Shown here: one piece after another, positions 2,259 through 6,386 of the stretch
How positions within the stretch are numbered: the first letter of the stretch is position 1
Layout: each line of letters starts with the position of its first letter
Assembly: GCF_003334305.1 (NCBI RefSeq)
Contig: NZ_QOWS01000049.1
Reading direction: 5' to 3' (one strand)
Source: Escherichia coli
GTDB lineage: Bacteria > Pseudomonadota > Gammaproteobacteria > Enterobacterales > Enterobacteriaceae
Length of the DNA: 6,386 bases
The notes under the pieces: generated by a model
Database searches by the model: none
Seen by the model: the letters and a program-made list of their open reading frames with translations, nothing else
Told to the model about the DNA's origin: nothing
Made by a program: the position numbers and the translations under genes

Positions 2259-2284
2259 CTGGACATTCAGGTAAAAAAGTCCAA
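2259..2284. repeat. Dyad-symmetric motif copy 3 (CTGGACATTCAGGTAAAAAAGTCCAA), fused to the terminator stem
   Basis: TGGAC (2260-2264) / GTCCA (2279-2283). The right half-site is also the 5' arm of the terminator hairpin at 2278-2304. Confidence 0.55.
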
Positions 2285-2358
2285 CTGGTGAGGTTGGGCT
2301 TTTTGGCTTTCCGGTTCTGTTGGTGGCTATGACCGGAGAAAATTGCTCTACACCTAAC
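2273..2358 (-). ncRNA. Candidate small RNA, orphan paralog of the antisense RNA at 4727..4814
   Basis: Homologous to 4727-4814 along its length: the same terminator architecture, the same internal hairpin (TCCGGT ... ACCGGA), and a conserved -10 (TAAAAT on the minus strand, plus-strand 2365-2370). The predicted 5' seed is different (GUAGAGCAAUUUUCUCC versus GUAGAGUGACUUCCUCC). No adjacent toxin gene, and no target found in the window. Confidence 0.4.
2278..2304. terminator. Bidirectional rho-independent terminator (A-tract / 8-bp stem / 7-nt loop / T-tract)
   Basis: AGTCCAAC (2278-2285) pairs with GTTGGGCT (2293-2300), with one G-U pair. The loop is TGGTGAG. A5 lies upstream and T5 downstream, so it reads as stem plus U-tract on both strands. 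It serves the 1772..2221 ORF on the plus strand and the sRNA candidate on the minus strand. Confidence 0.6.
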
Positions 2359-2837: not shown

Positions 2838-4340
2838 ATGAAGAAATTTTATCAATTTAGGGATGAACAGCGAAAGGAGCTTGAACAACATGATTTTTAT
2901 AGTTTGATTTCTTCAGATTGTATAGCGTTGAAAGACAAACTATTATTTGCTCCTGTTATGGCTCATTTCATAATGAACTTCAGAGACATGAATAAATGGG
3001 TTATCAGGTTTGATAACAATGATAATGAATATAAATCTGTTATAAACGGTGGAACAATCGAGGATGAAACACATTCAAGATTGTTTCTGGAAGACTGGAG
3101 GAAACTATATATAGATGACAAACTTAACTGGAAAGCAAGTGATGTTATATACTGGTTGTTTATTAGTCGAGAAATGGAGTGTTTCCGAAAATTTGGTATT
3201 GATTTTATGAGACTTTGTGTAGATGATGGAGGAGACCCAATACTTCGATATTCTCACTCCGAGTCAGGAGAAACTTGCGGTAATATATTCTTTTCAAGAA
3301 TTAGTCCTATTGCTGATCAAGTTGCCAATCATTTGGGAATATCACTCCGTTATTTTGGAACATTTCACCTTAATCTTGAAAATGGACATGTATGGAAGTC
3401 AGAAGGTGTTTTTGAAAATATAGAGTTGTCACCAGATTCTTATAAGAAAATGGCTACTCTATCAAAGAGAATGTTTGATATATTTGAAGGAATTCATGAC
3501 TCTTTTTATAATTACCTGTCCAGTTATGTTCTTAATGGAAGTCATCCGTCATTTTTTGAATCATTACCTGTAGGGAAAAATGTTGCACCTATATACCCTG
3601 AATTTGTGATAGAAAACAAAAGCCATAACGATGGTAGACATATTGAACATATAAACAATTACCTGGAAAAAATATCGAGTCATGAGTTCTTTAAATGGCT
3701 GGTTAACACCTCAATAGACCCTCAATTGAAATTGAAAAGTTTCATACCTCTTTGGATTGTTGATATTATGGGGTATAGAGATATTAATAAATATGTTTTT
3801 ACATATGAACAGCCTGAATCAGAAAGTGAAAAGATTATAAATGATTATGCATTACACTTGTCAGAGCATAGCCGTTTATTTTATCATGACTGGAAGTCAC
3901 TTCAACTTGATGATATGTTACGTTGGAGTGCCAGTGATACTCTTGAGTTTATTTTTCTTAATTCAGATATGGATATGCATAGAGAAAATATAGTTAAGTT
4001 TTCTTTGTTCGGATTAAAACACAGAGATCCTGTTATCAGGTTCTGGTTTATGATGATACTGGAGTTAAGTGGAAAAGAATTTTTCTCTCATGTTGGAGAT
4101 ATAGCTTTACAGGTGGAAAGTAAATATAATATTTATCTCCCATATTTATGTGGACGCCATGCAACAGAAAATGAGCATGAAGCATATAATAATATGTATG
4201 AGCATTTTATGGTAAAGGAACTTAGCCCTGAACAAAGTGATCTAATAATACAAATTACAGACATGGTTATGCGGTCATTATTGAATAATTTGGATATCTC
4301 ATATCGATATGTAGTAAATAATTTATTGGCAGCTCGTTAG
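2838..4340 (+). CDS. Hypothetical 500-aa protein made of two homologous ~220-aa halves; function unknown
   Basis: Long ORF with a strong AGGAG Shine-Dalgarno site, its own AT-rich promoter region and its own terminator. The two halves share ETHSRLFLEDWRKLYIDDKLNWKASD versus EHSRLFYHDWKSLQLDDMLRWSASD, FRDMNKWV versus YRDINKYV, and a later ELSP motif. No signal peptide or TM helix is apparent. Codon usage is strongly AT-biased compared with the flanking sequence. Confidence 0.8.
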   Translation: MKKFYQFRDEQRKELEQHDFYSLISSDCIALKDKLLFAPVMAHFIMNFRDMNKWVIRFDNNDNEYKSVINGGTIEDETHSRLFLEDWRKLYIDDKLNWKASDVIYWLFISREMECFRKFGIDFMRLCVDDGGDPILRYSHSESGETCGNIFFSRISPIADQVANHLGISLRYFGTFHLNLENGHVWKSEGVFENIELSPDSYKKMATLSKRMFDIFEGIHDSFYNYLSSYVLNGSHPSFFESLPVGKNVAPIYPEFVIENKSHNDGRHIEHINNYLEKISSHEFFKWLVNTSIDPQLKLKSFIPLWIVDIMGYRDINKYVFTYEQPESESEKIINDYALHLSEHSRLFYHDWKSLQLDDMLRWSASDTLEFIFLNSDMDMHRENIVKFSLFGLKHRDPVIRFWFMMILELSGKEFFSHVGDIALQVESKYNIYLPYLCGRHATENEHEAYNNMYEHFMVKELSPEQSDLIIQITDMVMRSLLNNLDISYRYVVNNLLAAR

Positions 4341-4404: not shown

Positions 4405-4504
4405 AATGCCCAGAACAGGGGGAATTTCCATTCATGCCCAAAAAATATTTTGATGTCCTCTCGCCAATTCTCGCGCTCAGTCCTTCCTGAAAAACCTCAG
4501 AATT

Positions 4505-4645
4505 CACGTAGCGCATCGCCGCTACTGCATCCATCAAAAAAAATGACAGCTTTTTTAATCATCTTGTGTTACTCAACTTACTGAAAAATGTGATTTATGA
4601 AAATGCCGCCGTCGGCATCAAGCAGTTGGCCAGCGCAACCGGCTG
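4505..4645. repeat. Repeat block U, copy A (about 140-bp core; homologous to 5765-5905)
   Basis: Shared anchors, by eye about 75% identity: TTCACGTAGCG, TACTG-ATCCATCAA, AATGAC, CTACTGAAAAAT, GGC-ACAGCATC. The reading frames are not conserved between the two copies, so it is probably non-coding. Confidence 0.55.
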
Positions 4646-4726
4646 CATCGACCGCAACAAAAAAACTGAAAGAGAAAGCCCCTCAAATGAGGGAGAAAAA
4701 AAGGAAGTGCAGTCAACGAGAGGCGT

Positions 4727-4814
4727 AAAAAACCCGACTGGTGAGGTCGGGTTTTAATACGGTTCCGGTTCTGAGTTGGTGGCTCTGACCGGAGGAAGTC
4801 ACTCTACACCTAAC
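4727..4814 (-). ncRNA. Candidate antisense small RNA (type I antitoxin-like), divergent from the 31-aa peptide gene
   Basis: Minus-strand promoter: TTGCAA (4844-4849), 17-bp spacer, TAAAAT (plus-strand 4821-4826). The predicted start is near 4814. The terminator is stem CCCGAC (4733-4738) / GTCGGG (4746-4751) with loop TGGTGAG and a U6 run on the minus strand. The first 24 nt (complement of 4791-4814) pair with plus-strand 5026-5049 in the peptide mRNA leader (23 Watson-Crick pairs plus one G-U). Confidence 0.5.
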
Positions 4815-4820
4815 GTTTAC

Positions 4821-4849
4821 ATTTTATGCACTCAGCCGCAGTATTGCAA
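4821..4849 (-). promoter_or_regulatory. Candidate sigma70 promoter of the antisense RNA (-35 TTGCAA, -10 TAAAAT, 17-bp spacer)
   Basis: Read on the minus strand: TTGCAA, then TACTGCGGCTGAGTGCA, then TAAAAT. Confidence 0.45.
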
Positions 4850-4903
4850 CTAACTGTGGTTAAGGCACCACATTTAGTTGTGTATCGTGGGTTTTATATA
4901 CCT

Positions 4904-4909
4904 TATAAT
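4904..4909 (+). promoter_or_regulatory. Candidate -10 (TATAAT) for the peptide mRNA, implying a leader of about 210 nt
   Basis: Consensus TATAAT at 4904-4909 with an AT-rich upstream region; the -35 is poor. It is divergent from the antisense RNA promoter, about 55 bp away. Confidence 0.3.
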
Positions 4910-5025
4910 CATGAAGTTAGCCGTGTGGTGTGGCTTCTTCCTCTGCCCTTCCCGTTTATGCAGGTATGAACGATTTTAAAGTCCTGGCTGAACAAACAGG
5001 TGGTGCTGTGTTTAGTGCTCTGGCA

Positions 5026-5049
5026 GGAGGAAGTCACTCTGCACCTAAC
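5026..5049 (+). promoter_or_regulatory. Predicted antisense RNA target site in the peptide mRNA leader
   Basis: GGAGGAAGTCACTCTGCACCTAAC (5026-5049) differs at one position (A to G) from plus-strand 4791-4814, so it is complementary to the 5' end of the minus-strand RNA with one G-U wobble. Confidence 0.5.
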
Positions 5050-5102
5050 AATGCGAGAGAACCGTTGTGACAGGCAGTGTAAGAGCAAGCAACGGTGATT
5101 TC

Positions 5103-5119
5103 CTCCAGTTTTACTGGAG
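5103..5119 (+). promoter_or_regulatory. Hairpin sequestering the Shine-Dalgarno sequence of the peptide gene
   Basis: CTCCAG (5103-5108), loop TTTTA, CTGGAG (5114-5119). The SD GGAG (5116-5119) is inside the 3' arm. TTCCTCC at 5100-5106 could alternatively pair with GGAGGAA at 5026-5032. Confidence 0.4.
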
Positions 5120-5125
5120 AAACGG

Positions 5126-5221
5126 ATGATTAATCTGTTAATCATCGTTCTCAGGGCTGTGGTCGCCGTTGCAAACGCGCTGATTGCAATTCTGGAACTG
5201 ATTCGCCAGTTCATCGACTGA
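5126..5221 (+). CDS. 31-aa hydrophobic peptide, type I toxin-like (MINLLIIVLRAVVAVANALIAILELIRQFID)
   Basis: ATG at 5126 with GGAG 6 nt upstream. An in-frame stop lies upstream at 5096-5098, so this is the first possible start. The peptide has one predicted TM helix and a charged C-terminus. A near-identical paralog is at 6044..6139. It is not in the ORF track, which lists only the antisense frame 4909..5214. Confidence 0.6.
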   Translation: MINLLIIVLRAVVAVANALIAILELIRQFID

Positions 5222-5446
5222 TGACAGCGGAAACGTAACTAAGGACAGGAAGTGAACCGCTTCCTGCCCTTTAACATACTGTGATATTTTTCAAAAAAAC
5301 TCACCAATATTCTCCTCGGCAGAAATGACATAACTCACTGTAAAATAACAAATCATCTAAACGCCAGCTTTGTATTGAGCGCGTTGGCCAACGCCTTTAT
5401 CAGCTGCGACCGCACCAGATAATTTGAATAAGATTTCCCGCATCAC

Positions 5447-5472
5447 CTGGACATACAGGTTATTCTGTCCAT
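5447..5472. repeat. Dyad-symmetric motif copy 4 (CTGGACATACAGGTTATTCTGTCCAT)
   Basis: TGGACA (5449-5454) / TGTCCA (5466-5471), with an inner dyad ACCTG ... CAGGT. It lies in the spacer between the two peptide units. Confidence 0.6.
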
Positions 5473-5764
5473 ACCTCATTAGTTACAACATTCACGCGTT
5501 CTGTTCCTTTATCCGGTGCCCTGTTCCAGTATATGTGCCCATATCCTGGGTTATTCAGGATAACCGCTTCCTTTTCGCCCTGTCCTGTCGTTCATATCCC
5601 CCTGGACAAAAATGCATTATCGGAAAAAATGTCCAAAATTTTTTTGGTGATCGGAATTTTTGTTGTCGGACGCACCTCTTCTTCAGGTCATAATTGCTGA
5701 CACATCCCAAAAAACAGGAGCGGAGATTTAAAAATTGAGTCACTTACCCGCCAAAATTTTCCAG

Positions 5765-5905
5765 ATTTCACGTAGCGTACCGTCGATACTGTATCCATCA
5801 ACAAATGACTATTTTTTGAATGTGTCATTTCCTGTAACCTACTGAAAAATATCAGTGAATGACAATATCGGCGACAGCATCGGAGCTGATAGCCAGTTTC
5901 CTGAA
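5765..5905. repeat. Repeat block U, copy B (homologous to 4505-4645)
   Basis: Same anchors as copy A. It is preceded by a candidate -10 (CATAAT, 5689-5694) and followed by the hairpin at 5994-6032. Confidence 0.55.
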
Positions 5906-5993
5906 TGCATATGGCCAGAACAGTAAATTTGAACCAGGTTCTCACGTCACCAGGCGACGTGTCTGGGAAACTGGTGAACAACAGGCACAGAAA

Positions 5994-6032
5994 AGCCCAA
6001 CTTTATGGGGGTCAGTTCAGTGAGGTTGGGCT
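5994..6032. terminator. Hairpin homologous to the sRNA terminators (8-bp stem, enlarged 23-nt loop), directly upstream of the second peptide gene
   Basis: AGCCCAAC (5994-6001) pairs perfectly with GTTGGGCT (6025-6032). The loop ends in TCAGTGAG, compared with TGGTGAG in the other copies. On the plus strand, A4 lies upstream and no U tract follows. Confidence 0.45.
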
Positions 6033-6043
6033 AAGAGAAACGA

Positions 6044-6139
6044 ATGATTAACCTGTTAATCATCATTCTCAGGGATGTGGTCGCCGTTGCAAACGCGCGG
6101 ATTGCAGTTCTGGAACTGATTCGCCAGTTCATCGTTTGA
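6044..6139 (+). CDS. Second copy of the 31-aa peptide (MINLLIIILRDVVAVANARIAVLELIRQFIV), possibly degenerate
   Basis: ATG at 6044 with a weaker ribosome-binding site (AAGAG). It differs from copy 1 at 7 nt (V8I, A11D, L19R, I22V, D31V, one synonymous), and two of these put charged residues in the hydrophobic core. It lacks the sRNA, promoter and leader block present upstream of copy 1. Confidence 0.45.
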   Translation: MINLLIIILRDVVAVANARIAVLELIRQFIV

Positions 6140-6309
6140 TGACAGCGGAAACGTAACTCAGGACAGGAAGTTCCAAATAGCTCCCAGCCAGCATATGTAA
6201 TTTTCAAAGGGGCAGTTGTTAACTCTGTAATAACGCCATGTAAAGTATTCCTGCCCCCTCCATGATCCTCCATAGTATTTCTTGAGTTAATTTTCAAAAA
6301 GCTTCTGAT

Positions 6310-6386
6310 GGTGATGCTGCCAACTTACTGATTTAGTGTATGATGGTGTTTTTGAGGTGCTCCAGTGGCTTCTGTTTCTATCAGCT
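6310..6386 (+). mobile_element. IS1 insertion sequence, left end (element continues beyond the window)
   Basis: GGTGATGCTGCCAACTTACTGATTTAGTGTATGATGGTGTTTTTGAGGTGCTCCAGTGGCTTCTGTTTCTATCAGCT matches the IS1 left inverted repeat and the insA 5' region as I recall them. It is in the same orientation as the IS1 fragment at 1-77. Confidence 0.9.
6365..6386 (+). CDS. insA: IS1 InsA, N-terminal fragment (GTG start; continues beyond the window)
   Basis: GTG GCT TCT GTT TCT ATC AGC translates to (M)ASVSIS, the InsA N-terminus as I recall it. Confidence 0.7.

Follow-up and report, generated by a model that had tools for sequence, protein, structure and literature searches.

The chromosomal dinQ-agrAB locus encodes a single-helix inner-membrane toxin and combines a switch between anti-Shine-Dalgarno (anti-SD) and Shine-Dalgarno (SD) sequences with a trans-acting, repeat-derived sRNA (PMC3567139, PMC5066626). 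The dql genes have been defined by their likeness to dinQ (Kristiansen et al. 2016, PMC5066626). Among these, the dqlB/agrB pair of pOXA-48 is an addiction module that depends on base pairing (PMC12365149), and that of pOXA-484 is a stabilising toxin-antitoxin pair (PMC12317039). Here we compare with these systems two dqlB units, A and B, on a stretch of DNA of 6,386 nt (hereafter the window), and argue that unit B is likely the fossil of a dqlB/agrB type I toxin-antitoxin locus.

Results

The window and its relatives

The window is a 99.9-100% match to ColV-type IncF virulence plasmids such as pECOS88 (NC_011747.1), and spans the DNA between two IS1 copies, the ends of which lie at 1-78 and 6310-6386. 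RefSeq calls two "DinQ-like type I toxin DqlB" genes within it, which score 72.4 bits (unit A) and 58.2 bits (unit B) with the NCBIfam DqlB model NF041473 (cut-off 35). With the Rfam AgrB model (RF02891, gathering score 40), two AgrB RNAs are called on the minus strand, one of 64 bits at 4725-4813 and one of 46 bits at 2271-2357. As judged by these Rfam and NCBIfam scores, the predicted assignment to the DqlB/AgrB family is beyond chance.

Relatives of DqlB were gathered by exact cluster look-up, profile search of representatives and tblastn. Of the loci named below, L003 is the Salmonella IncX1 plasmid CP093097, L004 is pC59-153, L015 is the IncX4 plasmid pNIID93_2, L016 is the IncX1/X3 plasmid CP133142 and L020 is plasmid p100 of E. 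coli 317.

Several features of the window outside the two units were also recorded. An inverted repeat of ~24-39 nt, ATTCCnnGCnTCACC-TGGACA-TWCAGGTAATTC-TGTCCA, occurs five times in one orientation (813-836, 1148-1171, 1711-1734, 2260-2283 and 5448-5471; 0.26 expected by chance), each time between small gene cassettes, and recurs at the corresponding junctions of L002, L004 (two copies), L015 and L018. The left limit of the DNA common to the window and pC59-153 (5463) falls inside one of these copies, and pC59-153 has its own variant there. The repeat looks like a recombination site or a marker of module junctions, and is possibly the target of an IncX-type tyrosine recombinase. On the minus strand, a 224-aa ORF (73-747) cut by the left IS1 matches PADLOC Aga_Helical-REase (E 4e-23), is called a PD-(D/E)XK nuclease pseudogene by RefSeq, and may be the remnant of a defence gene. 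A 500-aa AT-rich ORF on the plus strand (2838-4340), for which no Pfam or PADLOC match was found, is 93% conserved in L020 and stands directly upstream of an A-type or a B-type dqlB unit.

Unit A is an intact dqlB/agrB locus

By its sequence, unit A spans 4725-5271 and is a complete member of the dqlB/agrB family of type I toxin-antitoxin loci, a family already described and experimentally validated. All features looked for are present, namely the AgrB sRNA, the complementary leader, the DqlB ORF and the terminator, and are arranged as follows.

4725-4813, minus strand: AgrB antitoxin sRNA of unit A (Rfam RF02891, 64 bits against a gathering score of 40)
4849-4821, minus strand: promoter-like TTGCAA-17-TAAAAT of AgrB (promoter scan)
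4904-4909, plus strand: conserved TATAAT, -10 of the unit A toxin gene, present in L002 and L003 too
5005-5049, plus strand: AgrB target in the unit A leader, equal to direct repeat D2 (pairing with AgrB nt 1-44, -65.1 kcal/mol)
5103-5117, plus strand: anti-SD/SD hairpin (fold)
5126-5221, plus strand: dqlB-A ORF (NCBIfam, 72.4 bits)
5241-5271, plus strand: dqlB-A terminator (fold, z = -3.28)

The conserved -10 at 4904-4909 implies that the toxin mRNA would have a leader of ~210 nt, and the encoded peptide is identical to that of dqlB in pNIID93_2. By analogy of unit A with the work on pOXA-48 and dinQ, the anti-SD of an intact locus would close the SD, and the divergently transcribed AgrB would pair with the leader repeat and block translation.

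The AgrB-like sRNA at 2271-2357 (minus strand, 46 bits) is a third, orphan one with no adjacent dqlB. Partial pairing of its 5' end with the leader of unit A is predicted at -46.8 kcal/mol (cognate AgrB, -65.1), and it may be an 'anti-addiction' or spare antitoxin; at about 2393-2428 it is followed by a (CGCCTTTAA)x4 repeat. Other copy numbers of toxin and antitoxin were seen among the relatives. Positions 2500-3931 of L003 hold a true tandem array of two dqlB/agrB units, and L015 has two tandem AgrB genes (1316-1398 and 1951-2038) upstream of one dqlB, which resembles the agrA/agrB pair beside chromosomal dinQ. L016 carries at 1240-1600 a wild-type-looking dqlB, encoding an L017-type peptide, which only ~260 nt separate from one end of a Tn3 transposase gene. 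A search of 3 kb of this plasmid yielded no AgrB, and the gene may be another antitoxin-less copy.

Unit B has lost the control region of the locus

The features of unit B and its surroundings are as follows.

5667-5694, plus strand: weak promoter-like CGGACG-16-CATAAT, the only candidate source of read-through into unit B (8/12 match, below scan threshold)
5737-5777, plus strand: 5' end of a tyrosine recombinase gene, first ~41 nt, IncX4-like, fused to the unit B block (comparison with pNIID93_2)
5752-5990, no strand assigned: unit B copy of the conserved block beyond the AgrB terminator (70-80% against L002/L003; 91.5% against L020 2414-2682)
5994-6032, minus strand: remnant terminator stem-loop of a B-type AgrB, with expanded loop (folds; arms alignable with those of the AgrB terminators, 4727-4755 and 2274-2302)
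6032-6035, plus strand: deletion junction, where 359-363 nt of intact loci (about 4754-5116 of unit A) are gone (alignments)
6033-6037, plus strand: degenerate Shine-Dalgarno AAGAG (GGAG in intact loci)
6044-6139, plus strand: dqlB-B ORF, 31 aa, MINLLIIILRDVVAVANARIAVLELIRQFIV (NF041473, 58.2 bits; RefSeq dqlB, WP_000609144.1)
6140-6171, plus strand: truncated 3' UTR, in which the left terminator arm alone is kept (6159-6171; end of homology, fold)
6172-6309, no strand assigned: DNA past the 3' end of mcjA, flanking the microcin J25 module (unrelated to dqlB loci; continuous with mcjA in L004, L005, L006 and L018)
6310-6386, plus strand: left end of IS1A, breakpoint of an IS1-adjacent deletion (annotation of NC_011747.1)

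By these predicted features unit B (5752-6171) is a degenerate member of the dqlB/agrB family. A preliminary description of this DNA had proposed that the two units are homologous, which agrees with our data: 6035-6171 is 93% identical to 5117-5253 of unit A (9 differences in 137 nt), and the upstream block (~5752-5990) is collinear with 4491-4724 of unit A at about 70-75%. The hairpin that it placed against the ribosome-binding site has a 13-bp stem on the plus strand, and its last base lies directly 5' of AAGAG. It had also reported that the segment of unit A with the antisense RNA, promoters and leader (4761-5115) is missing from unit B. Mapped against four intact loci, the deletion indeed covers this segment with slightly different ends. 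With it went both promoters and the AgrB body, together with the complete 5' UTR, which includes the target of AgrB, and the anti-SD; the conserved TATAAT and the anti-SD CUCCAG both fall inside the deletion.

Within the block that was kept, the stretches at 4491-4640 and 5752-5850 read CAGATTTCACGTAGCG...CTACTG.ATCCATCAA...ACTTACTGAAAAA, with a GTAGCG/CGCTAC hairpin. All dqlB/agrB loci compared have the CAGATTTCACGTAGCG block on the far side of the AgrB terminator, and the first ~16 nt of the block are also found in the start of the IncX4 recombinase gene.

No AgrB was found in 5272-6386, either at the Rfam gathering threshold or at a permissive E <= 5. Nor was an AgrB target found in unit B: the best duplex in 5700-6175 reached -26 kcal/mol and was scattered, against -65.1 in unit A. 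This comparison used a 45-nt AgrB seed analysis in place of RNAduplex on whole RNAs, which is noisy over long range and gave for AgrB and unit B a duplex energy equal to the shuffle mean. Because unit B has no AgrB pairing site, it is not expected to be under AgrB control.

The SD reads GGAG in five intact units (unit A, L002, L016, L017 and unit 2 of L003) and AGAG in unit B, where the spacing is AAGAG-N6-ATG with the ATG at 6044. In the fold this SD is unpaired because the anti-SD has been deleted. The first 20 nt of both ORFs (5126-5145 and 6044-6063) fold into a hairpin with a perfect stem of 8 bp, AUGAUUAA-NNNN-UUAAUCAU, which takes in the start codon; this hairpin, found family-wide, probably damps translation initiation further. 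Downstream of the ORF, homology to dqlB (unit A, L002, L016, L017 and L003) stops at 6171, in the loop of the terminator, and 6136-6309 folds without significant structure (z = 0.13; unit A 3' region, z = -3.28). The insertion of ~60 bp at 6172-6232 that had been suggested earlier was not recovered, as similarity between the units ends at 6171 and the best match further downstream is an A/T-rich one of 13 nt, reached by 12/500 shuffles.

The deletion is derived

The AgrB terminator and its neighbouring conserved block are both still present in unit B, arranged as in intact loci. Evidence on the earlier state of this lineage comes from L020, in which a B-type block (91.5% identical) is followed by the same expanded-loop hairpin, here as the 3' end of an AgrB match (38.8 bits, E 5.7e-5), and the AgrB body is fused to remains of the leader, after which the locus is truncated by Tn3. 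Since L020 retains the AgrB body and leader remains, the loss in unit B is derived, not ancestral. On this sequence comparison the unit B lineage once had the sRNA and leader block, and the only two forms of it observed today were damaged independently of each other. L018 and L019 contain a microcin J25 (mcj) module that is roughly 2-5% diverged, with the same deletion and with D11 but L19 in the peptide; L19R therefore arose after the deletion.

The preliminary description had proposed examining whether related genomes always lack the sRNA block in unit B, which it took as a sign of an ancestral arrangement. The block is absent throughout 100 E. coli genomes and 70 plasmids, but this does not refute decay, as L020 shows the loss to be derived.

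Charged residues in the membrane helix

The dqlB-B and dqlB-A ORFs differ at exactly 7 nt, the number counted earlier, which give V8I, A11D, L19R, I22V and D31V together with one synonymous change. Among 144 family sequences, A occupies position 11 in 113/127 aligned, and L, V or M occupies position 19 in 135/142; D11 and R19 have six occurrences each, of which five fall in the unit B cluster. No intact locus encoding D11 or R19 was found, and the exact-sequence variants P0017 and P0018 share the deletion. In this sequence set the charged residues are thus restricted to the unit B lineage. The nearest intact peptide by tblastn, the L017 type, differs from that of unit B at positions 8, 11, 19 and 31 alone. 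On a helical wheel the polar stripe of the family (N3-R10-N17-E24-D31) lies at 140-200 degrees and R19 lies opposite it, at 0 degrees. A rough sum on the Hessa scale shifts by ~6.5, from -0.7 to +5.9 kcal/mol. A term search of the 2013 DinQ paper for mutagenesis and substitutions gave nothing that maps to positions 11 or 19.

The ratio pN/pS is 0.07-0.15 among intact units and 0.36-0.9 between unit B and intact units, in each case from a handful of substitutions; the unit B stem has three nonsynonymous and no synonymous changes, again small numbers. The substitution pattern of unit B is, as read from these alignments, relaxed. Among unit B copies there is 1 difference in the 96 nt of the ORF against 6 in 545 nt outside it, which is too few to split neutrality from constraint. 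Among the observations that count against reading unit B as a relic, its ORF is open and identical in about 100 genomes and scores above the DqlB model cut-off, and the peptide has a Kyte-Doolittle mean of 1.97 over 19 residues, which is compatible with membrane association.

Unit B travels with the microcin J25 module

Unit B with its deletion was found in 100/5,426 complete E. coli genomes and in 70 PLSDB plasmids, 99.5-100% identical, and 6160-6309 is confined to these 70 plasmids. It adjoins mcjA in 43/43 of the PLSDB plasmids that have mcjA. In plasmids without the IS1 of the window, unit B lies ~220 nt from the 3' end of mcjA, convergent with it, at the left edge of the microcin J25 cluster. 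pC59-153 and E. albertii plasmids have unit B beside mcj with unit A absent, and a Rfam scan found no AgrB within 7 kb of unit B in pC59-153; L006 has unit A, unit B and mcjABCD together, without the IS1. A literature search found no connection of microcin J25 with dqlB.

In pC59-153, 5.3 kb of mcj DNA (7576-12869) lie between the equivalent of 6309/6310 and the same IS1-sopA junction as in pECOS88, and the IS1 end in the window is 98.8% identical to that of pC59-153. With this junction shared and the mcj DNA still present in pC59-153, the window is best explained by an IS1-adjacent deletion of mcjABCD, and it appears that this event cost ColV plasmids of the pECOS88 type their entire microcin J25 cluster. 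IS1 does have its left end at 6310, as had been noted, with the transposase CDS beginning 55 nt inside the element in NC_011747.1; what it removed was the mcj cluster and no part of the dqlB unit.

Between the units, 5277-5777 is 92% identical to IncX4 pNIID93_2, in which dqlB is followed by a tyrosine recombinase gene with its CDS start at the equivalent position. As this is IncX4 backbone, units A and B were juxtaposed and not duplicated in place. The description of unit B as a second tandem copy is thus apt for the layout but not for the origin, as unit B accompanies the microcin J25 module whether unit A is present or not.

Discussion

How the relic may have formed and persisted

If unit B is the fossil of a dqlB/agrB locus, a single deletion of ~360 bp would have taken both promoters, the AgrB body and the leader in which AgrB has its target, as well as the anti-SD and half of the SD. 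The hairpin of the AgrB terminator would have been left, along with an SD now weak and unguarded, the ORF of 31 codons and a 3' UTR cut short mid-terminator. The ORF would then have gained only substitutions that change amino acids: V8I and A11D came first in this scheme, L19R followed, and D31V is limited to part of the lineage. Two of the new residues, D11 and R19, would put charges into the membrane helix, in the case of R19 opposite the polar stripe. Such a relic would be no addiction module and would be beyond the control of AgrB. It is probably tolerated as barely expressed, as detoxified, or as both, and probably persists as a physical part of the microcin J25 module, moving with mcjABCD. 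In the pECOS88 lineage, the mcj module would have come to lie beside an intact IncX4-type unit A, and the IS1-adjacent deletion would have taken mcjABCD and left unit B against IS1. The earlier suspicion of a decaying paralog is in agreement with the absence from unit B of AgrB, the -10, the target, the anti-SD and the terminator, and with its weak SD, two charged residues and relaxed substitutions.

Alternative explanations

As the main alternative, unit B could be a differently regulated, expressed paralog, with read-through from the site at 5667-5694 giving a ~350-nt leader, and with low constitutive translation from the unguarded AAGAG of an attenuated or re-purposed membrane peptide, possibly one of use to the microcin J25 module. 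Transcription of unit B from 5689-5694, within this site, had already been raised as an alternative in the preliminary description. This promoter-like site lies upstream of the truncated recombinase gene and is kept in every unit B copy, including that of L018, which has lost 5483-5668; no plus-strand terminator was found between it and the unit B ORF. The hairpin at 5994-6032 has no T-run on the plus strand and therefore should not terminate transcription. The unpaired SD region, the ORF intact in all copies and the invariable linkage to mcjA also fit expression. However, the match to a promoter is no better than chance expectation, even in the L018 version (TAGACG-16-CATAAT, 9/12), and the site is probably the promoter of the recombinase. 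The SD is degraded, the start codon lies in the 8-bp hairpin and there is no terminator, while the substitutions are all nonsynonymous and at otherwise invariant hydrophobic positions. Physical adjacency explains the mcj linkage equally well. The pS88 qRT-PCR study did not have the unit B ORF among the genes it covered. We consider an expressed paralog unlikely.

Co-option of the relic is, in our estimate, quite improbable, and could take three forms. The mcjA transcript may end at the minus-strand hairpin 6032-5994, the old AgrB terminator, and would then run antisense through unit B; no intrinsic terminator was predicted between the mcjA stop and unit B. Alternatively, the charge-modified peptide may have a non-lethal role at low level in microcin J25 producers, or may be a dominant-negative partner of toxic DqlB peptides.

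A recent in-situ tandem duplication of unit A, with unit B decaying where it was formed, might be suspected because the two ORFs, at a distance of 918 bp, point the same way and share 93% identity. This was rejected, and we regard it as very improbable: the upstream blocks are only ~70% identical, unit B is found next to mcj without unit A in pC59-153 and the E. albertii plasmids, IncX4 intergenic DNA and the 5' end of a recombinase gene separate the units, L020 has a B-type unit in the place of unit A after the 500-aa ORF, and codons 3 and 22 of unit B are common to L017-type loci and not to unit A. The least credible proposal, to which we give almost no weight, is that the short arrangement is ancestral and that this dqlB type never had its own sRNA or long leader; it is in keeping with the absence of the block from all ~100 genomes and 70 plasmids with the unit B ORF, but the AgrB terminator and the block beyond are retained in intact-locus order, and it is contradicted by L020, in which the B-type hairpin is still joined to an AgrB body and leader remains.

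Implications

The fossil that we propose is an ordinary relic and not a new kind of element. The RefSeq DqlB label on the unit B ORF in about 100 complete E. coli genomes nonetheless calls for caution in annotation. Unit B lacks five defining features of dqlB/agrB and therefore should not count as a functional locus, and since it is without working toxin-antitoxin parts, toxin-antitoxin counts on ColV and microcin J25 plasmids would be inflated by it. Unit B would also be a natural example of a type I toxin gene that has outlived its antitoxin, with the promoter lost, the SD weakened and charged residues added one at a time, and this history points to D11 and R19 as candidates for detoxifying mutations in work on DqlB structure and function. 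ColV plasmids of the pECOS88 type would descend from an arrangement that carried microcin J25.

Comparison with known systems

In relation to the dqlB/agrB systems of plasmids (PMC5066626, PMC12365149, PMC12317039), unit A has every part, whereas unit B shares with them the DqlB ORF and the AgrB terminator and is without the AgrB body, both promoters, the target leader, the anti-SD and the right terminator arm; its D11 and R19 were not seen in intact members. Chromosomal dinQ-agrAB shares architecture and regulatory logic with dqlB/agrB, but dinQ is SOS-regulated and chromosomal, DqlB is a peptide of 31 aa with a 7-residue insert relative to DinQ, and unit B has none of the dinQ regulatory elements. 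Unit 1 of L003 represents a second, independent decay of the toxin in a multi-copy setting, in which the SD has changed from GGAG to AGAG, a premature stop has arisen at codon 28 and pN/pS is about 0.8-1.0. That unit keeps AgrB (68.8 bits) and the leader while its toxin has decayed, and unit B is the reverse. As Pedersen and Gerdes reportedly found in 1999, chromosomal hok/sok loci of E. coli K-12 have been inactivated by IS insertions, deletions and point mutations, and are harmless passengers. Unit B resembles these K-12 relics as a type I toxin gene after loss of its regulatory regions, but they are of the Hok family and chromosomal, whereas unit B is plasmid-borne and linked to a bacteriocin.
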